DNA from: Pseudomonadales bacterium
GTDB taxonomy: Bacteria > Pseudomonadota > Gammaproteobacteria > Pseudomonadales > GM7GCV1
Length of the DNA stretch: 64,000 nt
Direction: 5' to 3'
NCBI GenBank assembly: GCA_965204215.1
Contig: CBDBDZ010000014.1
Span: forward strand, 101,252 to 165,251
Shown here: positions 25,589 through 39,976 of the stretch, in pieces
Layout of the letters: each line of letters opens with the position of its first letter
How positions within the stretch are numbered: position 1 is the stretch's first letter
Translations under genes and position numbers: made by a program
Notes under the pieces: generated by a model
Seen by the model: only the letters and a program-made list of their open reading frames with translations
Database searches by the model: none
What the model was told of the DNA's origin: nothing

Positions 25589-26716
25589 ATGCTACCTGAT
25601 TTTAAATTGGAAACTTATTTTTCTAAATGGGAGTTTAGTGCGCGTTATCATCTTACTGCATCAGATGCCCAAAGTATTTCACTGCGTGACTTACTGGCAA
25701 TAGCGACCGATGAGGAACGCGAAGAATTTGAAGGTATGTGGCTGGGCTATACTGAAACCTATGGGGCTTTTGATTTGCGTGAAGTTATAGCCACCACCTA
25801 CAGCAGCCAAAGCCCTGAAAATATTTTATGTTTTGCTGGCGCAAGCGAAGCCATTTTTGCTGCCAATGCGATTATTTTAGACAAAGATAGCCATGCCATT
25901 GTGGTTACTCCCAATTATCAATCACATGAAACGCTGCCAGTCACTATTTGCGAAGCAACAGGTGTCCCGTTGGAGGCGAATGATAATTGGTCGCTGGATA
26001 TTGATAGAATTGCAGCTGCTATAAAATCCAATACCAAATTAGTGACTATCAATTTTCCGCACAACCCAACAGGGGCCATATTACCGTTAGATAGCTACCA
26101 CGCATTAATAGCACTGTGTCGTAAGTATGGTATTTATATTTTACACGATGAAATTTTTAATGGGCTAGGCCCTACAGGTGTCAAGCACCTACCCTTTGTA
26201 GCTGATTTGTATGAGCGCGGTTTATCACTCAATGTTATGTCTAAATCTTATGGCTTGCCTGGACTTAGACTTGGTTGGGTTGCCAGCCAGGATAAAGTCA
26301 TATTATCGAAAATGGAGCGTTTAAAACACTACCTATCCATTTGCAATTCAGGTCCCAGTGAGCGTTTAGCTAAAATAGCATTACGTTACCGCAAACAATT
26401 ATTGGATAGAAATTGTGCTATTGTTGATGAGAACCTGGCAAAGTGGGATGCATTTTTTGCAAACTACCCCAACCTGTTTGAATGGCAAAGACCTGATGGT
26501 TCTTGTACTGCATTTCCTAAATACCTGGGCGCTGAAGGCGTTGAAGTCTTTTGTAAATCTTTAGTTGAGGAAAGTGGTGTATTATTTTTGCCAGGTAGCA
26601 TTTACTCCTCTACACTGACACCAACTCCTACTGATCGGTTTCGCCTAAGCTTTGGTCGTGAAAATTTAGATGATGGGTTACAAGCATTACACCAACATAT
26701 CTTAAAATTTTTATGA
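25589..26716 (+). CDS. PLP-dependent aminotransferase, class I/II
   Basis: 375 aa. The SKSYGLPGLRLGW motif contains the PLP lysine, and NFPHNPTG is present. Confidence 0.8.
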   Translation: MLPDFKLETYFSKWEFSARYHLTASDAQSISLRDLLAIATDEEREEFEGMWLGYTETYGAFDLREVIATTYSSQSPENILCFAGASEAIFAANAIILDKDSHAIVVTPNYQSHETLPVTICEATGVPLEANDNWSLDIDRIAAAIKSNTKLVTINFPHNPTGAILPLDSYHALIALCRKYGIYILHDEIFNGLGPTGVKHLPFVADLYERGLSLNVMSKSYGLPGLRLGWVASQDKVILSKMERLKHYLSICNSGPSERLAKIALRYRKQLLDRNCAIVDENLAKWDAFFANYPNLFEWQRPDGSCTAFPKYLGAEGVEVFCKSLVEESGVLFLPGSIYSSTLTPTPTDRFRLSFGRENLDDGLQALHQHILKFL

Positions 26717-27987
26717 AAACTCCTGCTTATTTTTTGATTGCCCTGCTATTGGTAGCCTGCGGTAAATTCAAGCAAACTGAACCCACAGAGGCTACCGAAA
26801 GCCTTCACCAATTATGGGACGAATACTATGCAACCATTGAAGAAGTCAGGCAGGAATTTATCAGCAGCGATGTATTTGACATTGACGATGCTCACCGCGC
26901 AGGAGCTTACGATTTATTGCAATCGTTTATCGCCTCTAATACGGCGCGTACCATGCAAGCGGATATATACAATCCACACATAGGCATTATGCTTTCACCG
27001 AGTATTCGATTGGGTATTGATAATCCCGACACATTTTACCGCAATACTTTTGTTGGCAACCCTACGGGCGATTGGGTTTATCGAATTTGGGGCAATCGCG
27101 GCAATACGGCCGACTGGTTACTGGAATTATTCGATAGTGCCAATCCTAAAGGGGCGATTAGCGTTTTTGAAGATGAAGATTTAATCACGGATGGAAATGG
27201 TAATTATGAAGTGTTTTTAAGTGCTGAGAAAATGGGCGTTAACTGGATGCAGCTAAAACCAACCAATGGGCAGCTTAATCTGATTATTCGCGATAGCTAC
27301 AGCAATTGGGAAGCGGAAAAAGGCAGCACCGTTTTTATTGAACGCTTGGGCAGTGCGGGTATTCCTTCAGCTAATCCACATGAATCGCAGTTATTAACGC
27401 CACTAAAAACAGCGTTGGGCGTGCTAAAAAGACAAGGCAGATTTTGGGTCGATTTTGCTAAAAAATTACAATTGTTAGGACATAACAACTTTTCAAAATT
27501 TAAAGCTACCGAATCATTGGGTATTATTTCACAATACTATGGCGTCGGTTATTTCAGCTTAGAAGATGACGAGGCGTTGGTATTTAAACTACCGGAAGTT
27601 AATGCGGGTTATTGCGGGACACATATCAGCAATTTTTGGGCATCGGCACCCGATTGGGTCAATCGACAAGTAAGTCTGTCATGGTGCCGCAATGGTCAAG
27701 GGCAAGCCTACAAAGCCAAAGACGGCATGTATTATTTTGTCGTATCGTCGCGCGACGCAGGTATTCAAAACTGGATGGATACCGCAGGCTTAACCCAAGG
27801 GTTAGTGATATTGCGCATTCAAAGCCCCTATGAAGATATTAATTTAAAACCCCAAGGGCAACTAATTAAATTAGCCGATTTAGACCAGTATATTCCACAA
27901 GATATGCCGCGTTGGGATGCAAAGCGCAGAAAGCAACAAATCAAAATGCGTCAAAACCATGTAAGACAGCGTTATCAAACCTATTAA
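26713..27987 (+). CDS. hypothetical lipoprotein
   Basis: 424 aa with a lipobox (LLLVAC GK). Its start overlaps the aminotransferase stop (ATGA). No domain recognised. Confidence 0.7.
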   Translation: MKTPAYFLIALLLVACGKFKQTEPTEATESLHQLWDEYYATIEEVRQEFISSDVFDIDDAHRAGAYDLLQSFIASNTARTMQADIYNPHIGIMLSPSIRLGIDNPDTFYRNTFVGNPTGDWVYRIWGNRGNTADWLLELFDSANPKGAISVFEDEDLITDGNGNYEVFLSAEKMGVNWMQLKPTNGQLNLIIRDSYSNWEAEKGSTVFIERLGSAGIPSANPHESQLLTPLKTALGVLKRQGRFWVDFAKKLQLLGHNNFSKFKATESLGIISQYYGVGYFSLEDDEALVFKLPEVNAGYCGTHISNFWASAPDWVNRQVSLSWCRNGQGQAYKAKDGMYYFVVSSRDAGIQNWMDTAGLTQGLVILRIQSPYEDINLKPQGQLIKLADLDQYIPQDMPRWDAKRRKQQIKMRQNHVRQRYQTY

Positions 27988-28584: not shown

Positions 28585-29331
28585 TTACAGAGAAGGTAAA
28601 CTAAGTTTTGCCATACGTCCACCGTCCACTGCCCATACTTGCCCAGTAACAAAATTCGATTCATCAGACAATAACCAACAAGTTAAGTTGGCAATATCCT
28701 CAGGTGTGCCTGTTCGGCCAAGAGGATGAATGGTTTTAAGATTTTGTTTGAACGCTGCAGGATTGGGCATGGACTCAATAAAATCATTGTTTAAATCGGT
28801 ATCAATCCAACCTGGAGCAATAGCATTGCAACGAATGTTGTCAATGCCGTGGTCAATAGCAACGGCGCGCGTGAGTGCGTGCAGCCCACCTTTACTGGCG
28901 CAGTAAGCACTGTGTAAAGGGTTTGCGCCCAGCCCTTCAATGCTGCCGATATTCACAATACTACCACTGGTTTGGATTAAGTAAGGCAATGCGTATTTTA
29001 TTAATAGAAAGGGTGCAGTGAGGTTAATACTTAAATTAAGATTCCAGTCTTCCAGGCTAGTGTCTTGAATGGAGCGTTCAAACATCATGCCAGCGTTATT
29101 AACAAGGCCATCGAGTTGACCAAATGTATCATAGGTGCTTTTAATCAGCCTTTGACAGGCTTCGGGCTTGGATAAATCGGTTTGAATAAAATGGCCTGAA
29201 TCGGATTCAGAACGCTGCCCTACAACTACCTGTGCACCGCGTTGAATTAGCGTTTGAGTAATGGCAGCGCCAATACCGCTACTGCCGCCGCTAACGATAA
29301 AAACTTTATTAGTAAACGGCTTTGCCACCAT
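28585..29331 (-). CDS. SDR-family oxidoreductase
   Basis: 248 aa with SGGSSGIGAAI (TGxxxGxG-like), NNAG, and YCASK as the catalytic Y-x3-K. Confidence 0.85.
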   Translation of the reverse strand: MVAKPFTNKVFIVSGGSSGIGAAITQTLIQRGAQVVVGQRSESDSGHFIQTDLSKPEACQRLIKSTYDTFGQLDGLVNNAGMMFERSIQDTSLEDWNLNLSINLTAPFLLIKYALPYLIQTSGSIVNIGSIEGLGANPLHSAYCASKGGLHALTRAVAIDHGIDNIRCNAIAPGWIDTDLNNDFIESMPNPAAFKQNLKTIHPLGRTGTPEDIANLTCWLLSDESNFVTGQVWAVDGGRMAKLSLPSL

Positions 29332-30028
29332 TTACCTCCAGGGTTGTACCTGTGATATAACGCGATTCGTTTGAGGCTAAAAAAGCTACAACATCGGCAA
29401 TGTCTTCAGCTTCGGCAATACGTCCAAGAGGAACCGTTTCACCCAGTTTGGCAACTGCGGTTTCGGGATTGAAACCACGTCTTTCAAAACCGCTGCGAAG
29501 CATAGCGGTGTTAACTTCATTAGGGCAAACTGCATTGGCTCGTATGCCTTGATGTGCATGGTCGCGGCCTAAACACTGTGTCAATGCAGCAACGGCAGCT
29601 TTTGATGTGCAATAAGCAATATGGTCAGGCCCAGGGTATAATCCCCAACATGAGGCGATATTGACAATCACTCCACCGCCTTGCTCACTCATAATAGCAA
29701 CCGCGGAGCGGCATATTCGAAATACTGCATTGACGTTAACTTGCATGGACAATTGCCAGTCATTGTCGCTGGTCTGTTGTATGTTGCCGCGGCAAATAAT
29801 GCCTGCGTTATTGATAACAATATCTAAACCACCTGCTAAGTCAAATGCTTCTTCAACGAGCCGGTTACAAAAAGTATTGTCAGTTAAATCGCCAGTGATA
29901 TTGTGGTGGGCATTGTCAACAGGCTTAATATCGCAAGCAATAATAGTCGCTCCCTGTTGCAAAAATTTATTGACAATGGCGGTTCCAATGCCTCCTGCTG
30001 CACCAGTGATAAGAATTCTAGCTGACAT
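29309..30028 (-). CDS. SDR-family oxidoreductase
   Basis: I trimmed the ORF to MSARILITGAAGGIGTAI. It has NNAG and YCTSK. It overlaps both neighbours, which suggests translational coupling. Confidence 0.85.
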   Translation of the reverse strand: MSARILITGAAGGIGTAIVNKFLQQGATIIACDIKPVDNAHHNITGDLTDNTFCNRLVEEAFDLAGGLDIVINNAGIICRGNIQQTSDNDWQLSMQVNVNAVFRICRSAVAIMSEQGGGVIVNIASCWGLYPGPDHIAYCTSKAAVAALTQCLGRDHAHQGIRANAVCPNEVNTAMLRSGFERRGFNPETAVAKLGETVPLGRIAEAEDIADVVAFLASNESRYITGTTLEVNGGKAVY

Positions 30029-31565
30029 TGGCAGGAACCTCTTGCTCGCGTTTGGCAATGTATTCCAGCAATGCTTGATTGATGACAGGGTCAAGCTCTG
30101 GCTGTTGATATTGACTAAGCAACTTGCGCGCATAATTTTGAGCGCGCTCGGTAATTTCTATTGAGCCTTCGGATTCCCACTGTTCAATCGAATTATTATC
30201 AAACAGCCTGGGCATAAAATATGCGCTTTGGAAATGATCCTGAGTAAATTGGTGGGCAAGGTAGTGTCCTCCAGGACCAATATCACTAACAGTGGCAACG
30301 GCTTCATCAAAGTTATCCCATTGCACGCCTTGAGCCATTCGATACGCCATAGCGCATTGTTCGGCATCAACCACAAATTTGGACATGCAACAGTGCATAC
30401 CGCCTTCATTCCAGCCAGCCGAGTGCCAAATATAGTTGGCGCCACTCATCATTACGGCCATTAGGGTAGTAGCACTTTCATAGCCAGCTTGGGCATCAAA
30501 GGTTTTAGCCCCGCCCAAGGTGTTTGAAGTGCGCCATGGTACTTTGTAGAAGCGGGCCAATTGACCAATCATAAAATTCATTAACGATATTTCTGGCGTT
30601 CCTGCCATGGGCGCTCCTGATGCCATGGATACGGTACTCAAATAATGTCCGTAAATGGCAGGTGTTCCTTTACGAATTAATTGGGTATACGCCAGTGCCG
30701 ACAAGGCCTCAGCATTAAGTTGTGCCACCGTTGCAGCTACATCGGCTGGGGTGTTAGCGCCGCCCAGGACAAAGGGAGAGCAAAGTACGGGCTGGTTATA
30801 TTTGCCAAATTCGCGCATTGCACCCAACATAGATTCATCCCATACTAATGGTGAATTGCCATTACAGTTTGCGGTAACAACAGGATGGGTATGCAAATGG
30901 TCTTCACCGAATAAAATTTTACACATATCTATAACATCGCTGGCATTTTCGCCAGTAGTAGACATGCCCATAAATGTTTTATCGGAATATGCCATTGAGG
31001 AATAAGTAATCCATAAGTGACGATGCCCTACGGGTTTATCCATAGGTTCACAAATCACATGGGCACTGGAATGCAGAGCAGGGCTCATATGCGCCAACTT
31101 GTGAAAGGTTGCTAAATCCTCAACGGAACCCCATTTGCGCTCACCCTCTAAATTGCGGATAAAAGGTGCGCCAGTCATGGGCACAAAAATGGAACTGTTT
31201 TTGCCAATGGTGACATTTTTTTTGGGGTCGCGAGCATGGTAGGTAATGGTTTCGGGGATGCTGCTGATTAATTCCATTACCAGATTCCGGTCAATACGAA
31301 CACGGTAACCGTCACTTTCAGGACCTATTGACGCACCAGCTTCACGCCATTGCTCCAAAGCAATATCATCGCGAAAATCGACTCCTACATCTTCCAGTAT
31401 TTTTAATGAGGCATTGTGAATTTTTAAAATTTGTTCCTCATTTAAGGCCTCAACGCAGGGAAGTCCCCGCTCTAAATGCGGCAACATGGGTTCAATCGCA
31501 TTGGTGCGTAAATTGCGTCGGGCATTGCGACCACCGCGACGTTCTTTTCCCACAGCATCAGTCAT
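30018..31565 (-). CDS. MttB-superfamily (trimethylamine methyltransferase-like) protein, non-pyrrolysine type
   Basis: 515-aa ORF with no in-frame stop. The N-terminal GRNARR ... LNEEQILKIHNASLKILEDVGVDF pattern is typical of MttB-family proteins. Confidence 0.75.
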   Translation of the reverse strand: MTDAVGKERRGGRNARRNLRTNAIEPMLPHLERGLPCVEALNEEQILKIHNASLKILEDVGVDFRDDIALEQWREAGASIGPESDGYRVRIDRNLVMELISSIPETITYHARDPKKNVTIGKNSSIFVPMTGAPFIRNLEGERKWGSVEDLATFHKLAHMSPALHSSAHVICEPMDKPVGHRHLWITYSSMAYSDKTFMGMSTTGENASDVIDMCKILFGEDHLHTHPVVTANCNGNSPLVWDESMLGAMREFGKYNQPVLCSPFVLGGANTPADVAATVAQLNAEALSALAYTQLIRKGTPAIYGHYLSTVSMASGAPMAGTPEISLMNFMIGQLARFYKVPWRTSNTLGGAKTFDAQAGYESATTLMAVMMSGANYIWHSAGWNEGGMHCCMSKFVVDAEQCAMAYRMAQGVQWDNFDEAVATVSDIGPGGHYLAHQFTQDHFQSAYFMPRLFDNNSIEQWESEGSIEITERAQNYARKLLSQYQQPELDPVINQALLEYIAKREQEVPANVS

Positions 31566-31589
31566 AATTTGGGTTTAATCTGGGTCAAT

Positions 31590-32930
31590 TTATAAATCAG
31601 AACCTGCTTGCCTATGAATCCATTTCAAGTAAGCATTGGCACCAACAGTCATTAATGGTTTAGGAGGTAGTCGATTGGGCTTAGGTTCAGCTCGTAGCAA
31701 GTTCACTAACGGATTGCTTTGTCCTGTTGCAAAATCGGCAATTAACATACCACCTAATGTACCTTTACTTAGCCCTAACCCGTTATGGCAGCAGGCGGCA
31801 TAAAGGTTGGGTTGTAATTGCTCAAAAATAGGAACAGAATTTAGGGAAAGGCAAAGGTGTCCCCCCCAGCGGTACTGCATGGCTACATCGTTTAACATAG
31901 GGAAACGTTGTTGAAAAGACTTATCGTGGCGCCTGCCTAAATGTTCAATTTGCTTTGCTGTGGTTTCTTTATTCGCGTTGTAGGTAAAGGTATTGCGAAT
32001 GATGATACGCGAACTGTTGTTATAGTTAATTTTTCTAACCGTTGTACCCATTGGGTGAGCGGGAATAAGGCCCCATTCATCATGTCCGCCTAAGCGTTTA
32101 ACCTGCTCGGATGTTAATTCCTCAGTCATACTTGAAAAGGTGTAAATTGGTATAGTGCGATTGTTATAAAACCCGAAAGATTCCAGATGACCGTTTACGG
32201 TTAAAATAATTTTTCCAGCAGCAATTACACCTTGTGGGGTTTGAATACGGTAGCCAGAGTTGTCGATTTCAATTTGTAGTGCGGGACAATTTTCAAAAAT
32301 ACTGATCAGGTGATGTTGTTGCAGGCCAGCTACTATATCCAGTATATAACGTGCAGGTTGTAATACTGCACAATTGGGTGTGTAAATTCCTGAACTAAAA
32401 TATTGTGAACCTGTAAGCTCACGCATTTGCGAGGCGGACAGGGCTTGAAACGACTCATCTAACTGATTTAAATGACGGCAGAAAGTGTTCAGAGCCTTTT
32501 GCCCGGTACCATCGGTTGCGCCGTGGTACTTGCCACAGAGTTTGAAGCTATCGCCTAAGTTATAGTCAGTTGCCATTTGCCGGGCAAAATCAATAGCGCT
32601 GCGGTTTAATAAAATTTGATTGAGGTCTTGTTGACGTCCAGCACCTGAATAATCATCACTTTGCAGTTCGTGAGGCAGGTCAATCATAAACCCTGAATTG
32701 CGACCACAGGCGCTCCACGCAATTTTTTGAGCATCAATTAAAGTTATTGATTGACCATTCGTATTTTCCATAAGCCGTCTACAGGCACTAACGCCGGCAA
32801 AGCCAGCACCAATAACTAACCAATCTGTATCATGGCGGTTTTGAAAACCACCAAAATGTGGTTTTTCACCTGCAATTTCATACCATCCACAATGTGAAAA
32901 GTCATTGGGAAATTGCGTGACGTTAAGCAT
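31590..32930 (-). CDS. FAD-dependent oxidoreductase (DAO family, PuuB/OrdL-like)
   Basis: Dinucleotide motif LVIGAGFAGVSACRRL. Its length and C-terminal region resemble gamma-glutamylputrescine-oxidase-type enzymes. I prefer ATG 32930 over the TTG at 32981. Confidence 0.8.
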   Translation of the reverse strand: MLNVTQFPNDFSHCGWYEIAGEKPHFGGFQNRHDTDWLVIGAGFAGVSACRRLMENTNGQSITLIDAQKIAWSACGRNSGFMIDLPHELQSDDYSGAGRQQDLNQILLNRSAIDFARQMATDYNLGDSFKLCGKYHGATDGTGQKALNTFCRHLNQLDESFQALSASQMRELTGSQYFSSGIYTPNCAVLQPARYILDIVAGLQQHHLISIFENCPALQIEIDNSGYRIQTPQGVIAAGKIILTVNGHLESFGFYNNRTIPIYTFSSMTEELTSEQVKRLGGHDEWGLIPAHPMGTTVRKINYNNSSRIIIRNTFTYNANKETTAKQIEHLGRRHDKSFQQRFPMLNDVAMQYRWGGHLCLSLNSVPIFEQLQPNLYAACCHNGLGLSKGTLGGMLIADFATGQSNPLVNLLRAEPKPNRLPPKPLMTVGANAYLKWIHRQAGSDL

Positions 32931-32943
32931 TGGTTGCCGGGAA

Positions 32944-34461
32944 TTAAGGTAGTGATTCGACTTGTTGGTCGGAGATATCAACCCAAATGGTTTTTAATTG
33001 GGTGTATTGGTCATGGGCATGAACAGAATTATCGCGCCCACCAAAACCTGATTGTTTATATCCGCCAAACGGTGTGCTGATATCACCTTCGCCAAAGCAG
33101 TTGACCGTAACTGTGCCAGCGCGAATAGCGCGAGCCATGCGGTGCGCTGATTTAATATTGCTAGAAAACACCGAAGCGGTTAACCCGTATTCGGTGTCAT
33201 TGGCAGCCTTAATGGCGCTGTCGCTGCTGTTAACTTCAATAACCGCCAACACCGGGCCAAAAATCTCTTCACGCGCAATTCGCATATCGGAGTTAACGCC
33301 GTCAAATATGGTGGGTTCAATAAAATACCCTGCTCCCTTGACTTCAAAGGCATTGCCTCCAGCGACCAAGTTAGCGCCCTCTTGTTTGGCTTGCTCAATG
33401 TAACCCATAATTTTATGGAAGTGTTTCTCGCTGATAATAGCTCCTAAATTATTACTTGGGTCAAGTGGATCGCCAGTGCGCCACTGCTGGGTGCGATATT
33501 GTATTTTTTCCAGCAATGCCTGCTTAATGTCGCTGTGGACAATAAGTCGAGAATTGGAAGAACAGTTTTCCCCCATATTCCAAAATACGCCATTGGTGAC
33601 ATGCTGCGCAACCACATCCAAATCATCGGCATCATCCATTACCACACAGGGGTTCTTTCCACCACATTCAAGCACAACCTCCTTCAAATTGCTCTCACCA
33701 GAATACTTTAAAAACGCTTTGCCTACAGCAGTTGAACCAGTGAAGGTAATCATATCAATATCGGGGTGTATTCCCAACGCTCTACCTACCATTGAACCAC
33801 TGCCTGTTACAACATTAAGTACCCCGTCGGGAATGCCCGCCTCGGTAGCCAGTTCGGCTAACCTTAAAGTTGCCATACTGGTTTCCTGAGCAGGCTTGAT
33901 AATTAAACTGTTGCCAGAGGCAAGAGCTGGTCCTAGTTTCCAGGCTACCATTAACAGAGGGAAATTCCAGGGGACAACCGCAGCTACAACGCCAATGGCT
34001 TCACGCACTACCATGGCTAATACATCGTCGCCAGTGGGAGCAACCTGATCGTAAATTTTGTCAATTAATTCTGCATGCCATTGAATACAATGTATGGCTT
34101 CTGGTATATCCACTGTTTCCACTTCGGCAATAGGTTTACCGCTTTCTAAACTCTCTAAAACCGCTAATTCGTGTTGATTGCGTTTAATTAACTTGCATAG
34201 CTTAATTAATATTTGTTTGCGCTCTGAAGGGTGGCATTTAGACCAAATACCCGATTCAAATGCTTCTTTGGCTTTTTCTACTGCCAGATTTACTTCATCC
34301 TGCCCGCAAACACTTATTGCTGTAAGAGTCTCGCCGGTGGCAGGGTTTATGGTATCAAAGGTTGTATCGGTGGCAATAGCCTTGCCATTAATGTAGGCAG
34401 CAGTAGGGAAAATTTGTGAGGCAGCAAGCGATTTGTATTCGTTTTCAGTAAGTACAGTCAT
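32944..34461 (-). CDS. NAD(P)-dependent aldehyde dehydrogenase (PuuC-like)
   Basis: 505 aa with VLECGGKNP, GENCSSNSR (catalytic Cys) and FGGYKQSGFGR. Confidence 0.88.
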   Translation of the reverse strand: MTVLTENEYKSLAASQIFPTAAYINGKAIATDTTFDTINPATGETLTAISVCGQDEVNLAVEKAKEAFESGIWSKCHPSERKQILIKLCKLIKRNQHELAVLESLESGKPIAEVETVDIPEAIHCIQWHAELIDKIYDQVAPTGDDVLAMVVREAIGVVAAVVPWNFPLLMVAWKLGPALASGNSLIIKPAQETSMATLRLAELATEAGIPDGVLNVVTGSGSMVGRALGIHPDIDMITFTGSTAVGKAFLKYSGESNLKEVVLECGGKNPCVVMDDADDLDVVAQHVTNGVFWNMGENCSSNSRLIVHSDIKQALLEKIQYRTQQWRTGDPLDPSNNLGAIISEKHFHKIMGYIEQAKQEGANLVAGGNAFEVKGAGYFIEPTIFDGVNSDMRIAREEIFGPVLAVIEVNSSDSAIKAANDTEYGLTASVFSSNIKSAHRMARAIRAGTVTVNCFGEGDISTPFGGYKQSGFGGRDNSVHAHDQYTQLKTIWVDISDQQVESLP

Positions 34462-34464
34462 AGT

Positions 34465-35382
34465 TTATACCAGGTCAGAAAGAGTTGTTTTAAGCGTTTT
34501 TAACACGCGTTCTACATCGCGTTTTTGTTCTTTGACCAATTCCAGCAATGGTGCGCGAACTGGACCAGTGGGTAACCCTTCCAGCTGGCAGGCATATTTA
34601 ATAGTTTGAATAAACTTGCCTCCTTGTTCAAGAATACCCATAAAAGGCATAAGCGCCGACATAATTTTTCGGCCTTTATCAAAGTCTTTCTCAATAACAC
34701 AGGCCTTGTAAAGAGCAATATGTTCTTTAGGCAGGCAGTTACCACCACCACAAACCCAACCCTTCGCACCCCATGCAAAGAATTCTAACGCCTGGTCATC
34801 CATGCCACACATTAAGTTAATTTGCGGATATTCTCTGGCAAGTAAATGCAGTTGATTAATATCGCCAGTAGACTCTTTAATGGATTGAAAATTGCGGCTT
34901 TTACCCACAATATCAAAAAATTCTTCACCCATGGTTGTACCAGTGCGGCCAGGGTAATTGTAGAGCATGACTGGTAAGTTGACGGCGCGGTCAATGGTTA
35001 AAGCGTGGTGTGCTAATTCGCGCTGCGTGGGCACGGCGTAATAAGGAGAACCCATAAGTATTGCGTCAGCATTGTGCTTTTTGGCCATAAGCCCATAGGC
35101 GATGGAATCATCTGGTCGAATAGCTCCAACCCCTACTACCAACTGGACGTTGTGGGAGTTGTCAGCGTTAAAACGGCAGATAGTTTCGGACGCTAATTTT
35201 ACCAGGAGTGAACGTTCATCACTATTTTGGACATAGTATTCACCTGTAGTACCGCCGACAACAATGCCGTGAACGCCAGATTTACATAAGTGATTGACAA
35301 CATTAATAAAGCCTGCTTCGTCAATGGCACCGTCACTGTGATAGGGGGTAATGACAGGTGGATAGATACCTTGAAATTTCAT
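34465..35382 (-). CDS. dihydrodipicolinate synthase/N-acetylneuraminate lyase family protein
   Basis: 305 aa with GGTTGEYY, YNYPGRTG, and the Schiff-base lysine context SIKESTGD. Confidence 0.85.
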   Translation of the reverse strand: MKFQGIYPPVITPYHSDGAIDEAGFINVVNHLCKSGVHGIVVGGTTGEYYVQNSDERSLLVKLASETICRFNADNSHNVQLVVGVGAIRPDDSIAYGLMAKKHNADAILMGSPYYAVPTQRELAHHALTIDRAVNLPVMLYNYPGRTGTTMGEEFFDIVGKSRNFQSIKESTGDINQLHLLAREYPQINLMCGMDDQALEFFAWGAKGWVCGGGNCLPKEHIALYKACVIEKDFDKGRKIMSALMPFMGILEQGGKFIQTIKYACQLEGLPTGPVRAPLLELVKEQKRDVERVLKTLKTTLSDLV

Positions 35383-35464
35383 CGTTAATTCTTATAAAAT
35401 ATGCCAGTTTGATTTATGTATTAGTCGAACCTGAAATGAAATAGCATAATTAGATGGAGGTTCA

Positions 35465-36910
35465 TTAGTCGGTCCAACCGGTTATCGTTTTAACTTCCAG
35501 AAAATCTTCCAGCCCCCAAACGCCACCTTCACGACCATTGCCTGATTGTTTAAACCCACCAAAGGGAGCACCTTCGCCTGCGTAGTTGCCGTTTAATTCG
35601 ACAACCCCGGAGCGCAGGCGTTTTGCCATGCGTTTGGCGCGTGCCATATCGGATGTCTCAATATAATTGGTTAAACCGTAAGGGGTGTCGTTGGCAATAG
35701 CGATGGCTTCTTCTTCGGTATCAAAGGGCATAATGGCTATAACCGGACCAAAAATTTCTTCACGGGCGATAGCCATATCATCAGAAACATCGGCAAATAC
35801 GGTGGGTTTAATGAAATAACCGCCTTGTAAAGCTTCGGGTAACTCAGGTGAACCTTCACCGCCAATAACCAATTTTGCACCTTCAATAATGCCAGAGCGG
35901 ATTAAGCCTTGTATTTTGTCAAAATGTACCTTTGAGACGACAGGACCGAGATGGTCACCTGATGCCAACGCATCGCCTAACTGGATTGATTCGGTAACGG
36001 TTTTGGCGGTTTCTACTGCCTTTTCGTAAATTGAGCGTTGCACTAACATTCTTGAAGGAGCATCGCAAGACTGACCAGAGTTATGCATTAGACGCATAAC
36101 GCCTCGCTCTACTGCATCGATATCGGCATCGGCAAAGATAATATTTGCCCCCTTGCCCCCCAATTCCAGGCTGACACGCTTGATACTGTCGGCAGCATTT
36201 TTGGTAATAGCTTTACCTGCTCTAGTTGAGCCTGTAAATGAAATCATATCAATATTAACATGTTGCGATAGTTGAGTACCAACGCCAATACCGTCTCCAT
36301 TTACGAGGTTAAAGACTCCTGCCGGGAAATTTGCTTTGTCAATCATTTCGGCAAAAAACACTGATGAAAGCGGCGCAATTTCAGACGGTTTAAGTACCAT
36401 AGTGCAACCTGCGGCAAGTGCAGGGGCGACTTTTAGCACCATTTGGTTCATTGGCCAATTCCATGGAGTGATTAAGCCGCAAACCCCGATGGGTTCAAGG
36501 CTGATATGGGTGTCTTTACAGTTTTCATTTAAGGGTCGCTCAAAGGTAAAATTGCGCGCAGTGTCGATAATATTGCTTAAATGCATAGAACCAGAGCTCA
36601 CTTGGTCGCTAAGAGACATATCAATGGGCGCGCCCATTTCTAATGACATTAACTTGCCCATGGCGTCGGCGTTTTTATTGTAAATATCCAACAGTTTTTG
36701 CATCAGAGACAAGCGGTCATCCAGATGGGTTTGACTCCATTTAACAAAAGCTTTTTTTGCAGCGGCTACTGCGGCGTTAGTATCGACTTCGCTACCTAAT
36801 GAAATTACTCCACAAGGCTTGCCAGTGGAGGGGTTGATAACATTGTGGTCGCAGGGGATAACAGGGGCAACCCATTCGCCGTCGATGTAAAATTTACGAT
36901 TATCAATCAT
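35465..36910 (-). CDS. aldehyde dehydrogenase family protein
   Basis: 481 aa with SLELGGKGANIIF, SGQSCDAPSR and PFGGFKQSGNGRE. Confidence 0.88.
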   Translation of the reverse strand: MIDNRKFYIDGEWVAPVIPCDHNVINPSTGKPCGVISLGSEVDTNAAVAAAKKAFVKWSQTHLDDRLSLMQKLLDIYNKNADAMGKLMSLEMGAPIDMSLSDQVSSGSMHLSNIIDTARNFTFERPLNENCKDTHISLEPIGVCGLITPWNWPMNQMVLKVAPALAAGCTMVLKPSEIAPLSSVFFAEMIDKANFPAGVFNLVNGDGIGVGTQLSQHVNIDMISFTGSTRAGKAITKNAADSIKRVSLELGGKGANIIFADADIDAVERGVMRLMHNSGQSCDAPSRMLVQRSIYEKAVETAKTVTESIQLGDALASGDHLGPVVSKVHFDKIQGLIRSGIIEGAKLVIGGEGSPELPEALQGGYFIKPTVFADVSDDMAIAREEIFGPVIAIMPFDTEEEAIAIANDTPYGLTNYIETSDMARAKRMAKRLRSGVVELNGNYAGEGAPFGGFKQSGNGREGGVWGLEDFLEVKTITGWTD

Positions 36911-37012
36911 TTCGCTCTTTGAAGAATTAGTCTATATTATGTGCGCCATTCTAATTAAAATTTAGCTTTTGTCTAAGCACTTAAACTATAATTTCTCAAA
37001 TTTTGAAAAAAT

Positions 37013-38329
37013 ATGACAACAAAAAACTGGTTCGCTCCTTCAACCGTTACAGCTGTAGTTATTGCCAATATGATTGGTACTGGCGTCTTTACCAGTTTAG
37101 GGTTTCAATTGGTGGGCATTCAATCAACTCCTGTGTTGTTGATATTGTGGATTTTAGGGGGTATTATTGCGTTTTGTGGCGCGCTTTGTTATGCGGAACT
37201 TGGTGCTGCACTGCCACGTTCTGGTGGTGAATATAACTTTTTATCGCAACTTATCCACCCCTGCGCTGGTTTTGTGTCTGGCTGGGTATCTACCACTATT
37301 GGTTTTGCGGCACCAACTGCTTTGGCTGCTATAACCTTTGGCAAATATTTAAGCGCGGTCTTTCCACAGTTGCCCTATATACCGTTGGCTTGTATGTTAG
37401 TGATTACTCTCACATTTGTACATTCATTGAATCGACGTAGCAGCGGTGCTATGCAAAATCTGTTTACTTTGCTAAAAATAGGATTTATTGTGGTTTTTTG
37501 TGCGATTTCTTTGTGGTTAATTCGCAAGTCAGGTAATTTACAACCGGTTGAAATTATTCCCGGTATTGATGATTTTTCCATTATGACCAGTAGCTCTTTT
37601 GCGGTATCGCTAATTTATGTCAGTTATGCTTATACAGGATGGAATGCAGCTACTTATATCAGCAGCGAACTAAAACACCCGCAACAACAGTTGCCGCGAG
37701 TGCTATTGATAGGTACAGCGGTAGTAACGCTGTTATATGTGTTATTAAATTATGTGTTCCTTCGCGTTGCGCCGATGGAGGCTATGGTTGGGAAGGTTGA
37801 GATTGGCTATGTTGCAGCAAGCTATGTATTTGGTGATTTCGGGACCGGGCTAATGGGAATTGCCATGGCATTTATGTTAATTTCCACCGTAAGTGCCATG
37901 ATTATTGCAGGGCCCAGAGTGCTGCAAATGATAGGCGAAGATTTTAATTTTTTTAAATGGTTAGCCGTTGTCAACCGCTCGAGCATTCCTTCTCGCGCCA
38001 TTATTTGCCAGTCGATTGTTACCTTGTTGTTTATCATTACAGGAACGTTTGATTCCATTTTAGTCTTTGCAGGTTTTACTTTAGGGCTCAATACTTTTGC
38101 AACAGTCATTAGCTTATTTATCTTGCGTTTAAAACAAAATAATCGTACTCAGTGTTTTCGCGTGTGGGGGTTTCCTCTGCCTCCAATTGTATATTTATTG
38201 TTAACGGGCTGGACTCTGAGCTACATTCTGATTCAACGCCCACAAGAGGCTTTGTTTGGTCTCGGTGTTATTGTAGCAGGGATTATTACCTATTTTTTAT
38301 TAAACACATCAAGAGTATTTAACCCATGA
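37013..38329 (+). CDS. APC-family amino acid/amine permease
   Basis: 438 aa with about 12 hydrophobic segments and the N-terminal GTGVFTSLG motif. It is divergent from the catabolic operon. Confidence 0.85.
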
Positions 38330-38745
38330 AATATTTACACACTATGGTGCGAGTCACCAATATTGAAGAGTCGTTAAACTTTTATTGTAATCAATTAGGT
38401 CTGGTAGAGCTAAAACGCTATGACAATCAACAAGGTCAGTTTACATTGGTTTTTCTTGCCGCACCAGGCGATGAAACTGCGCAGGTAGAGCTGACATACA
38501 ATTGGCAACCAGAAGCTTATTCTGAAGGCAGAAATTTTGGGCATTTAGCCTATGAAGTAGATGATATTTATGAAACCTGTCAAAAGCTTATGGATAAAGG
38601 GGTGACAATTAATCGACCACCGCGTGATGGCCGAATGGCATTTATTCGCTCGCCTGATAATATCTCTATTGAATTATTGCAAAAAGGCAGTGCACTGCCT
38701 ATCGTTGAGCCTTGGGTATCCATGTCTAATATTGGTTTCTGGTAG
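38326..38745 (+). CDS. gloA: lactoylglutathione lyase (glyoxalase I)
   Basis: 139 aa, VOC fold: HTMVRV ... ELTYNW ... GHLAYEV ... IELLQ. Its start overlaps the permease stop (ATGA). Confidence 0.85.
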
Positions 38746-38894: not shown

Positions 38895-39976
38895 CGCACA
38901 TTCAACTCATAAGTGCACATTGGTTAGAAAAAATAAGTTTATCTTGAGTTAGCTCAAGAAATACCTGCCAAGGGGTTTTGTACCCCAAGCATTTACGTGG
39001 TCGATTATTAATTTTATCAACCGCATTAAATACCTCGGTAGTGGTTACTTTATCTAATGCCATGCCCTTAGGAAAATAACGTCTAAGCAACCCATTGCTT
39101 TGTTCGTTTAAGCCCCTCTCCCAACTATGATAAGGCCTAGCAAAATAGCCTTTACAATCGAGCTTTTCGGCAATGATATTATGGGCTGAGAACTCACGAC
39201 CATTATCATAGGTTATCGTGTGGACATAATCCCTAAAAGTAGCTAAAAGAGTGATAACTGCGGCGCTTGTTAGCTCTGCTGTCTTACGGGCAATTGGCAT
39301 AGCTAGATAAAGTCGACTACGCCGCTCTGCTAGTGTAACGATAGCTCCTTTATGGCCTTTACCAATAACCGTGTCCGCTTCCCAATCGCCTAATCGGCTT
39401 TTTTTATCAACAATAGAGGGGCGTTCTTCAATATCAATCCGATTGGGGATACGGCCTCTATAATCGTTCTTACCATAGCGTTTGCGGTTCTTTTTAGAGG
39501 CATGACTCAAATGCCGATAAAGATTGCCTCCCTTGGCTTTATCGGCATAAATAAAGCGATAGACACTTTCATGATGAATACTAATGCCTTGCTCCATCTT
39601 GAGAATGGCGCAAATAATCTCAGGACTCCAGTCTATCTTCAACTTCTTAATAATAAAATCTTGAATCGATTTTGTTAGCTTTATTGACTTTGTCTTCATT
39701 TGATGTCGTTGCTGAGCTTTCTCATGAGCCTGCTTAAAACGGTAACCATTCAAGCCAGTATTGCGCTTCAATTCACGACCTATCGTTGTATGGTGACGAC
39801 CCATACTTTTTGCTATCGATGAATTGCTAAATCCGCTTCGTTTCATGGTGTAAATGTGGTATCTTTCGTTGTCGGTTAATTGTATATATCGTGTGGTCAT
39901 TGCATCACCTTTAAGTTTTTCGACGAACTGCATTATACAGTTAATCGACTTTTTTAAGATGTGCACTTATTATGCG
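38895..39976 (-). mobile_element. IS30-family insertion sequence, copy 1 (1082 bp)
   Basis: I set the boundaries where identity with the second copy (62657-63741) starts and stops. The ends are CGCA...ATAAGTGCACAT on the left and ATGTGCACTTATTATGCG on the right, an imperfect inverted repeat. Confidence 0.85.
38902..39900 (-). CDS. IS30-family transposase
   Basis: 332 aa from MTTRYIQLTDNERYHIY. It has an HTH (SIAKSMGRHHTTIGRELKRN) and a DDE region (WEADTV, TYDNGREF, WERGLNEQSNG). An AAGGTGA Shine-Dalgarno lies upstream. Confidence 0.92.
   Translation of the reverse strand: MTTRYIQLTDNERYHIYTMKRSGFSNSSIAKSMGRHHTTIGRELKRNTGLNGYRFKQAHEKAQQRHQMKTKSIKLTKSIQDFIIKKLKIDWSPEIICAILKMEQGISIHHESVYRFIYADKAKGGNLYRHLSHASKKNRKRYGKNDYRGRIPNRIDIEERPSIVDKKSRLGDWEADTVIGKGHKGAIVTLAERRSRLYLAMPIARKTAELTSAAVITLLATFRDYVHTITYDNGREFSAHNIIAEKLDCKGYFARPYHSWERGLNEQSNGLLRRYFPKGMALDKVTTTEVFNAVDKINNRPRKCLGYKTPWQVFLELTQDKLIFSNQCALMS

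Follow-up and report, generated by a model that had tools for sequence, protein, structure and literature searches.

The 64,000-nucleotide stretch analysed here (the window), positions 101,252 to 165,251 of the forward strand of contig CBDBDZ010000014.1 in the Pseudomonadales bacterium assembly GCA_965204215.1, contains a run of closely packed minus-strand genes, one of which encodes a non-pyrrolysine member of the MttB methyltransferase superfamily. Coordinates without a contig name refer to the window; C4, C13 and C14 are contigs of the host genome (G000), which is 99.76% complete. A sequence-only reading had described seven packed genes on the minus strand and a divergent pair. All nine open reading frames (ORFs) were recovered at the positions and in the families that it had given, family assignments being made here with Pfam and NCBIfam profiles and their curated cut-offs, but two start codons were wrong. 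Alignment with the closest relative, an 87%-identical cassette (L010), places the start of the first short-chain dehydrogenase (SDR1) at the ATG at 30028, which creates an 11-nt overlap with the MttB stop that is the same in L010, and the start of the DAO-family oxidoreductase (DAO) at the ATG at 32930, 13 nt after the gene for the second aldehyde dehydrogenase (ALDH2). With these corrections the spacings from ALDH1 to SDR2 along the minus strand are 82, 3, 13, 24, -11 and -23 nt. The MttB ORF is uninterrupted over 515 codons and contains no in-frame UAG (pyrrolysine) codon.

The conserved unit within this region consists of six genes, which encode a DHDPS-family enzyme (DHDPS), ALDH2, DAO, MttB, SDR1 and SDR2 (Table 1). 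Relatives of the MttB protein number thousands, and those with 68–87% identity supplied 80 orthologous loci, with MttB identities of 68–75%, which were tallied for neighbouring genes over flanks of 10 kb; the flanks are complete in 47. Among these 47, DAO is present in 45 and ALDH2 and the DHDPS-family gene in 44 each, and all four core genes (DHDPS, ALDH2, DAO and MttB) occur together in 42, an association far beyond chance. In many loci the MttB gene sits between ALDH2 and DAO. The two SDR genes were found as a pair in 22 of the loci with complete flanks (37 of all 80), SDR2 always being accompanied by SDR1. Only three of the 80 loci have ALDH1 near MttB, and no orthologue of the APC-family permease, the glyoxalase-like gene, ribH or ggt was detected within 10 kb of MttB in any of them. 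Since conservation does not extend to ALDH1, the permease and the glyoxalase-like gene, and since L010, which lacks ALDH1, comprises exactly DHDPS-ALDH2-DAO-MttB-SDR-SDR in another genomic setting, these three genes are local neighbours of a six-gene cassette. The earlier division into seven genes plus two thus does not hold, but the grouping from DHDPS to SDR2 does.

Table 1. Genes and other features of the MttB region (coordinates in the window)
Feature	Position	Strand	Remarks
SDR2 (second short-chain dehydrogenase)	28585..29331	-	PF13561 at 201 bits; last gene of the cassette
SDR1 (classical SDR, 239 aa)	29309..30028	-	PF00106/PF13561; start corrected from 30133
MttB, non-pyrrolysine MttB superfamily	30018..31565	-	PF06253 at 669 bits, profile positions 1-500
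DAO-family FAD amine oxidoreductase (446 aa)	31590..32930	-	PF01266 at 134 bits; start corrected from 32981
ALDH2, PuuC-like aldehyde dehydrogenase	32944..34461	-	PF00171 at 566 bits
DHDPS/NAL-family class I (Schiff-base) enzyme	34465..35382	-	PF00701 at 180 bits; first gene of the cassette
ALDH1, betaine/amino-aldehyde-type	35465..36910	-	PF00171 at 504 bits; upstream of the cassette
Divergent intergenic region, 102 nt	36911..37012	.	promoter-like minus-strand site 36948-36975
APC-family amino-acid permease	37013..38329	+	PF13520 at 175 bits
VOC/glyoxalase-fold protein	38326..38745	+	PF00903 at 77 bits; 4-nt overlap with permease
IS30-type transposase	38902..39966	-	HTH_38 and rve domains; between glyoxalase-like gene and ggt

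Carriers of MttB proteins at 68–87% identity include Rhodobacteraceae, Stappiaceae, Kiloniellales, SAR116, Thioglobus-like bacteria, Granulosicoccaceae and other marine Proteobacteria, and thus both Alpha- and Gammaproteobacteria. Maximum-likelihood analysis groups the orthologues in a single clade with 100% SH-aLRT support and a long stem, apart from Desulfitobacterium hafniense MtgB, Sinorhizobium meliloti 4YYC and the other paralogues of the host, and alpha- and gammaproteobacterial sequences are mixed within it. The clade is also carried on many plasmids. Because the MttB gene occurs in none of ten same-family and in one of 20 same-order genomes, this patchy distribution points to horizontal spread of the cassette. 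The host is a marine gammaproteobacterium that has not been cultured. Its RF1 protein is ~70–72% identical to those of Porticoccaceae, Cellvibrionaceae and Litoribacillus; relatives of the host show no shared synteny around ribH, and the limits of a cassette insertion could not be drawn.

The neighbours of the orthologous loci point to the substrate class. In 18 of the 80 loci, the 10-kb flanks of the MttB gene include an orthologue of HpbD, the enolase-family enzyme characterised as hydroxyproline-betaine 2-epimerase; it lies directly downstream of MttB where the order was read. For this group of enolase-family genes the median gap is 66 nt. The encoded proteins are 64–83% identical to rsHpbD and score 514 bits against HpbD of Paracoccus denitrificans (4E8G) and 443 bits against that of Pelagibaca bermudensis (2PMQ/4H2H). 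In published biochemical work rsHpbD epimerises trans-4-hydroxyproline betaine (tHyp-B; kcat/Km 4300 M-1 s-1) better than proline betaine (170–390). On a plasmid of Cereibacter sphaeroides 2.4.1 the genes are arranged as MttB-HpbD-SDR-SDR, with a divergent group FAD oxidoreductase-ALDH-DHDPS-GntR followed by ProV-ProW-ProX-GlxA. Their count fits RSP_3998 (hpbJ), RSP_3999 (hpbI) and RSP_4007 (hpbD) as these are named by Kumar et al. (2014), from which we infer that the cluster is the published hpb locus and, by gene counting, that its MttB is RSP_4008. The ProX-type transporter genes of C. sphaeroides are reported to be induced by proline betaine (Kumar et al. 2014). The window proteins are 58% (DHDPS), 58% (ALDH2), 40% (DAO), 66–67% (MttB), 62% (SDR1) and 56% (SDR2) identical to their Cereibacter counterparts. 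The oxidase, DHDPS and ALDH genes (the trio) also occur as GntR-DHDPS-ALDH-FAD oxidoreductase on a plasmid of Rhizobium leguminosarum, where DHDPS, ALDH and oxidoreductase are 56%, 57% and 38% identical to the window proteins. They are preceded there by genes for a StcD/HpbA-like flavoprotein, an electron-transfer flavoprotein (ETF) and formaldehyde detoxification and followed by those for a betaine ABC transporter, a 4-hydroxyproline epimerase and a GlxA regulator. An oxidase, a DHDPS-family dehydratase/deaminase and an ALDH constitute the established route from cis-4-hydroxy-D-proline to alpha-ketoglutarate (eLife 2014).

With HpbD in 18 of 80 loci and the orthology to the hpb locus, the earlier idea that the genes break down a methylated osmolyte of the hydroxyproline type, with MttB at the first step, gained strong comparative support, and the Rhizobium and Cereibacter trios, the former next to a 4-hydroxyproline epimerase gene, likewise strengthen the assignment of the DapA-like enzyme, the ALDH and the FAD enzyme to a hydroxyproline-type lower pathway. 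In our view the cassette (35382-28585) probably serves to catabolise, via MttB, a 4-hydroxyproline-type betaine, most likely 4-hydroxyproline betaine (betonicine or turicine). The host genome itself encodes an HpbD orthologue (C13:805474-806580; 480 bits against 4E8G, 55% identical to rsHpbD), which is unlinked to the cassette. Two further genes follow it, for a 339-aa dehydrogenase of the Ldh_2 family and for an M20 peptidase (C13:805474-808967). The Ldh_2 family includes pyrroline-2-carboxylate and N-methyl-amino-acid dehydrogenases, so that this region could be a second small module related to proline betaine.

The same neighbourhoods bear on whether MttB acts on another quaternary amine, be it proline betaine, a 3-hydroxylated or otherwise ring-substituted one or a non-proline betaine, and is only co-regulated with a hydroxyproline-type pathway. 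HpbD racemises proline betaine as well, MtpB as the only characterised proline-ring MttB enzyme uses this compound, 70% of the clade genomes lack HpbD, and the transporters beside the orthologous loci vary (ProVWX, Dpp-type, BCCT, APC). We nevertheless regard such a substrate as unlikely: proline betaine requires neither a DHDPS-family enzyme nor a semialdehyde dehydrogenase, yet these genes are the most tightly linked ones and often flank MttB within one operon, where it lies, as mentioned, between ALDH2 and DAO.

Active-site residues are consistent with the assignment of MttB to 4-hydroxyproline betaine. Two pairs of residues bind the substrate of D. hafniense MtgB, the aromatic Y97 and F356 at the quaternary nitrogen and R312 with H348 at the carboxylate. 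Of these, R312 recurs in every characterised non-pyrrolysine member, but the aromatic pair is not conserved (JBC 2026). The window MttB, which is 39% identical to this MtgB and 38–39% identical to the MtgB-type paralogues of the host, keeps the carboxylate ligands as R345 and H381 and has T131 and G389 at the aromatic positions, as does the Cereibacter orthologue. None of these four residues varies among 21 aligned sequences of the clade. Without a Y97/F356-type pair the protein is, by its residues, not an MtgB. Because the carboxylate-binding Arg and His are kept and the aromatic pair is replaced, the predicted active site is compatible with an acidic quaternary amine that is not glycine betaine. 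The host genome carries five MttB paralogues, of which the one adjacent to mtgC keeps Y, R and H. Two very divergent paralogues (C13:519888-521435 and C14:424722-426272), which share 23–29% identity with the others, have neither this Arg nor this His, and each adjoins a gene that combines DAO and GCV_T domains in the manner of dimethylglycine dehydrogenase (DMGDH); they may act on non-acidic methylated amines or function differently.

Corrinoid supply is the point at which the locus looks incomplete. As the sequence-only reading had noted, no corrinoid protein, methyl-tetrahydrofolate methyltransferase or regulator was found in the window; the host's matches to B12-binding and pterin-binding domains all lie outside it. 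That reading had also named a corrinoid partner operon elsewhere as an outcome that would speak against its proposal, and the search of the genome for corrinoid and cobalamin genes located one. The segment C14:954606-957516 is an mtgB-mtgC-DUF1638 cluster, in which an MtgB-type paralogue 66% identical to S. meliloti 4YYC directly precedes the gene for a stand-alone corrinoid protein (B12-binding_2 plus B12-binding, 229 aa; C14:956220-956909), with the DUF1638 gene next (C14:956917-957516). A second cluster at C13:1088160-1092072 encodes in a row a protein resembling methylenetetrahydrofolate reductase (297 aa), a Pterin_bind protein (301 aa) and a RACo/RamA protein (680 aa), and represents metF2-mtgD-ramA. 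In Ruegeria pomeroyi one MtgC serves both the synthesis of methionine and the demethylation of glycine betaine, and it was proposed to serve also up to seven pfam06253 paralogues of unknown substrate (Mausz et al. 2025). Because the MtgC/MtgD/MetF2/RamA/DUF1638 set is encoded elsewhere, as in the published MtgBCD model, the missing partner at the locus appears ordinary, the carrier presumably being supplied in trans. Of the two options offered before, supply in trans is thus the one retained, and a corrinoid-independent MttB is not needed.

All of 50 other genomes with the MttB clade have a B12-binding_2 match and 49–50 of them a stand-alone corrinoid protein of ~230–350 aa, a co-occurrence that is confounded, to the detriment of our interpretation, by the MtgB-type paralogues which the same genomes hold. 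The published background is 156 MtgBCD-bearing genomes of >600 marine genomes screened, or about a quarter. A single cobalamin riboswitch of the host (C13:1231282-1231455) precedes a gene for a TonB-dependent receptor, and the genome contains no match to CbiC or CobS. Since corrin synthesis genes were not found, cobalamin must be imported; the host is probably a B12 auxotroph, yet one that would run five MttB paralogues on one corrinoid protein. The absence of a corrinoid gene from the window and from most orthologous loci would also be accounted for if MttB worked without such a partner, by cofactor-independent or direct-to-folate chemistry. This is highly improbable in view of the complete MtgC/MtgD/RamA/DUF1638 set and the riboswitch-controlled B12 uptake of the host, the nearly universal stand-alone corrinoid protein in the clade genomes and the published sharing of one MtgC by several paralogues.

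Based on the gene content, conservation and orthology described above and on the complete corrinoid toolkit, we infer the following route for 4-hydroxyproline betaine. MttB would move one N-methyl group to the Co(I) form of MtgC, which is encoded 820 kb away; MtgD would pass the methyl group to tetrahydrofolate and MetF2 would oxidise it, with RamA and the DUF1638 protein keeping the corrinoid active. The DAO-family flavoenzyme would then oxidise N-methyl-hydroxyproline, a step whose chemistry is uncertain. From the resulting product of the pyrroline-4-hydroxy-2-carboxylate type the DHDPS-family enzyme would produce alpha-ketoglutarate semialdehyde by dehydration and deamination, and ALDH2 would oxidise the semialdehyde to alpha-ketoglutarate; these last two steps are assigned by family and by orthology to hydroxyproline clusters.

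For the DHDPS-family protein we propose the function of a pyrroline-4-hydroxy-2-carboxylate deaminase. Its score with the DapA model TIGR00674 (175 bits) is below the cut-off of 206, a separate dapA is located on C4, and the motifs with the catalytic Lys (SIKESTG) and Tyr (LYNYPGR) are intact, as is TTGE. The best match in the PDB is an archaeal DapA (142 bits), and no characterised pyrroline-hydroxy-carboxylate deaminase or 4-hydroxy-2-oxoglutarate (HOG) aldolase stands out there. ALDH2 is proposed to be an alpha-ketoglutarate semialdehyde dehydrogenase (KGSADH); its structural matches are 7UYY (648 bits) and, at ~518 bits, 4LIH and KauB. DAO, the proposed oxidase of (N-methyl)hydroxyproline, has no solved relative at E < 1e-8 and weak profile matches (~100 bits) to L-pipecolate oxidase and PuuB-like models. 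With its AlphaFold2 model (pLDDT 87.7), Foldseek retrieved, with similar scores (TM 0.6–0.68), L-amino-acid deaminase, DMGDH, sarcosine oxidase beta and L-proline dehydrogenase. The earlier PuuB and PuuC labels stand as family resemblances, but both proteins score below the curated cut-offs, ALDH2 reaching 544 of the 850 bits required by the PuuC model. The same resemblances, and that of DHDPS to KdgD-type dehydratases, could suggest a sugar-acid (KdgD/KGSADH) or polyamine (PuuB/PuuC) pathway in which MttB would be an unrelated passenger. Such a pathway is hardly credible: all scores are far below the curated cut-offs, there is no PuuA, PuuD or sugar-acid gene nearby, and across the 80 loci the neighbourhood consists of betaine transporters, regulators of the GlxA type and HpbD, with MttB inside the operon. 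Puu-type polyamine and sugar-acid pathways were rejected, as the gene context contradicts both.

A module DHDPS-ALDH-GntR-FAD oxidoreductase without MttB was encountered beside a copy of IS26 on an IncR plasmid of a clinical Klebsiella pneumoniae isolate (NZ_LR890211.1, 20142-25191), the DHDPS being 54% identical to that of the window. The lower-pathway trio moves on its own.

SDR1 and SDR2 are paralogous (37% identical), and the pair is present in 19 of 20 loci with an enolase-family gene. It is probably an accessory module that travels with HpbD elsewhere, and our guess is that it funnels a wider range of stereoisomers or hydroxylated analogues into the pathway. In S. meliloti, three SDR genes belong to a hydroxyproline-type cluster on a plasmid of the pSymA type (CP140958.1); one separates the oxidase gene from the ALDH gene, and two come after a proline-racemase-family gene. 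SDR1 is 41% identical to the last of these, and SDRs seem to recur in hydroxyproline loci.

Several observations weigh against the route proposed above. ALDH2 resembles amino-aldehyde dehydrogenases of the PuuC/KauB type more closely than it does the model for GucD-type semialdehyde dehydrogenases. The fold neighbours of DAO are 13–16% identical to it and do not discriminate between L-, D- and N-methyl substrates, and BLASTP gave no match between DAO and the HypO-like enzyme of S. meliloti. For the second demethylase, HpbA/StcD, the best match in the host is 28% identical over 492 residues, with none at E <= 1e-120, and a demethylase of this type was not found in 21 of the 50 other clade genomes. 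No 4-hydroxyproline epimerase was detected in the host or within 10 kb in the 80 loci. Without StcD/HpbA and epimerase the route beyond N-methyl-hydroxyproline is incomplete and accounts neither for what becomes of the second methyl group nor for the stereochemistry. True HpbD orthologues (at least 50% identity) are present in only 15 of the 50 clade genomes, and the core therefore does not depend on HpbD. Finally, C. sphaeroides also has Rieske and HpbA demethylases, which Kumar et al. (2014) describe as induced by proline betaine; the Cereibacter MttB could thus be redundant or act on another compound.

The host does encode a Rieske oxygenase (C14:1262450-1263691), a possible counterpart of HpbB that is unlinked to the cassette. 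It lies in a region (C14:1258020-1266966) that further includes genes for a sarcosine-oxidase-alpha-like protein (965 aa), a SoxB-like DAO, an acyl-CoA dehydrogenase and a second enolase-family protein, the latter scoring 291 bits, below cut-off, on a cis-3-hydroxy-L-proline dehydratase model. This region may be another locus for methylated amines or hydroxyproline-related compounds.

Some of these discrepancies would be explained by an L-specific route, in which DAO oxidises the ring C5-N bond of N-methyl-trans-4-hydroxy-L-proline, ALDH2 turns the amino-aldehyde left by ring opening into (N-methyl)-4-hydroxyglutamate and DHDPS acts like HOGA1 as a 4-hydroxy-2-oxoglutarate aldolase that yields pyruvate and glyoxylate. 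HOGA1 is a DHDPS-family aldolase, and such a route resembles the mammalian hydroxyproline pathway. It agrees with the proximity of ALDH2 to amino-aldehyde dehydrogenases (PuuC, KauB) and with the best, if weak, DAO profiles (L-pipecolate oxidase and PuuB-like) and top folds (L-amino-acid deaminase, sarcosine oxidase and L-proline dehydrogenase). With HpbD missing from most cassette genomes and a 4-hydroxyproline epimerase from all loci, a D-specific oxidase would be left without a substrate. A class III aminotransferase gene lies beside the cassette in ~6 loci. However, there is no conserved enzyme for turning (N-methyl)-4-hydroxyglutamate into the 2-oxo acid, the orthologous Rhizobium trio is located next to a 4-hydroxyproline epimerase gene, the hallmark of the D-route, and the DHDPS-family protein shows no greater similarity to aldolases than to enzymes of the DapA type. 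We therefore consider the L-specific route quite unlikely.

A more speculative form of the route that leads from 4-hydroxyproline betaine to alpha-ketoglutarate semialdehyde would do without epimerase and second demethylase. The four core enzymes, together with the shared MtgC and MtgD, would make up a self-sufficient, O2-sparing pathway, in which DAO oxidises N-methyl-hydroxyproline at the ring and the DHDPS-family enzyme expels methylamine instead of ammonia to give the semialdehyde, and in which the SDRs act as a C4-epimerase by oxidation and re-reduction, bringing in other stereoisomers. We think this scheme unlikely. If true, three enzyme families would each gain a new reaction, and Roseobacter, SAR116, SUP05-type and other marine clades would provide a sink, dependent on B12, for an osmolyte of phytoplankton and seaweeds.

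The cassette combines features of two published systems, the hpb pathway and aerobic methyl transfer by MtgBCD. With the former it shares the families of the trio (DAO-family oxidase, DHDPS-family deaminase and ALDH), identities to C. sphaeroides of 40–58% for the trio and 56–62% for the SDR pair, and the presence of HpbD in the genome. Demethylation in the hpb pathway, by contrast, is brought about by the O2-dependent Rieske system HpbB/C and the flavoprotein HpbA (Kumar et al. 2014), whereas the window operon has an MttB-family methyltransferase and the host lacks an HpbA homologue. The ProVWX-type betaine importer HpbHIJ and the GntR and GlxA regulators of the hpb locus are missing at the window cassette. 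GntR is encoded in 42 of the 47 complete-flank loci; tblastn revealed no ProX orthologue in the host genome, and the APC permease is the only adjacent transporter. The main text of Kumar et al. (2014; mBio) contains neither the word "methyltransferase" nor a mention of SDRs. What connects the cassette with MtgBCD of R. pomeroyi (Mausz et al. 2025) is a pfam06253 enzyme that would depend on an unlinked, shared set of MtgC, MtgD, MetF2, RamA and DUF1638 protein, all of which are encoded in the host. It differs by the low identity of its MttB to MtgB-type paralogues, by the separate clade and the missing Tyr of the aromatic pair, and by a gene context of the hydroxyproline instead of the dimethylglycine/sarcosine type.

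Eubacterium limosum MtpB (proline betaine), MtcB, MtyB and MthB are likewise non-pyrrolysine MttB enzymes which demethylate acidic quaternary amines once and conserve the Arg corresponding to MtgB R312. According to their descriptions, however, they belong to anaerobic acetogen systems in which a corrinoid protein and a second methyltransferase (MT2) feed the Wood-Ljungdahl pathway and N-methylproline is not degraded further. The hyp cluster of S. meliloti has in common with the cassette a DHDPS-family enzyme, an FAD oxidoreductase, an ALDH and extra SDRs, and with its relatives a GntR regulator. Its DHDPS-family enzyme and ALDH are only 35–36% identical to those of the window, its oxidase gave no BLASTP match, and it comprises a proline-racemase-type epimerase and an amino-acid ABC transporter but no methyltransferase.

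Regarding the neighbours of the cassette, ALDH1 has a 63% identical paralogue encoded directly beside a BCCT-family transporter gene (C14:859008-862101), which suggests that ALDH1 is a betaine-aldehyde-type dehydrogenase duplicated next to the cassette. The view of ALDH1 and the APC permease as parts of the pathway had to be abandoned in the light of the three and zero loci, respectively, that contain them, and ALDH1 as first pathway enzyme was ruled out for the same reason. In this particular genome, the permease could nonetheless be the importer, and ALDH1 is possibly co-transcribed with the cassette. A promoter-like sequence in the divergent intergenic region (TAGACA-16-TAGAAT) has 10 of 12 matches, but in the promoter and terminator scans the number of sites was not above shuffled expectation, and they do not define a transcript. 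The suggestion that a coupled gloA deals with a 2-oxoaldehyde by-product failed: the gene is absent from all 80 loci, and the glyoxalase-fold protein is below both glyoxalase I cut-offs (108.9 against 120 for TIGR00068 and 89.9 against 165 for NF050074). The region is flanked by ribH on one side and by the IS30 transposase gene and ggt on the other, and the cassette region has a G+C content of 44–46%, slightly above that of most of the window. Between an aminotransferase gene and ribH lies an ORF of 424 aa (26713-27987, plus strand) that has no Pfam match and no homologue in ten same-family genomes.

Algae, seaweeds and plants commonly contain hydroxyproline and proline betaines as osmolytes. 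To our knowledge, the only described bacterial route for degrading these betaines opens with an oxygen-dependent Rieske demethylase. Among the papers searched, none joins hydroxyproline betaine with a corrinoid or MttB enzyme; diverse substrates for pfam06253 paralogues have already been predicted in general terms. The presence of an orthologue in the genetically tractable C. sphaeroides 2.4.1, within an already studied locus, makes the idea directly testable, and the wide occurrence of the clade, including plasmids, would make its MttB a marker gene that could be read in ocean metagenomes. If the clade indeed consists of hydroxyproline-betaine methyltransferases, one of the numerous orphan paralogues that pfam06253 has in aerobic marine bacteria would gain a function. 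The methyl group would then go to tetrahydrofolate instead of formaldehyde, and the turnover of another abundant nitrogenous osmolyte would be tied to the supply of vitamin B12, which the host must import.

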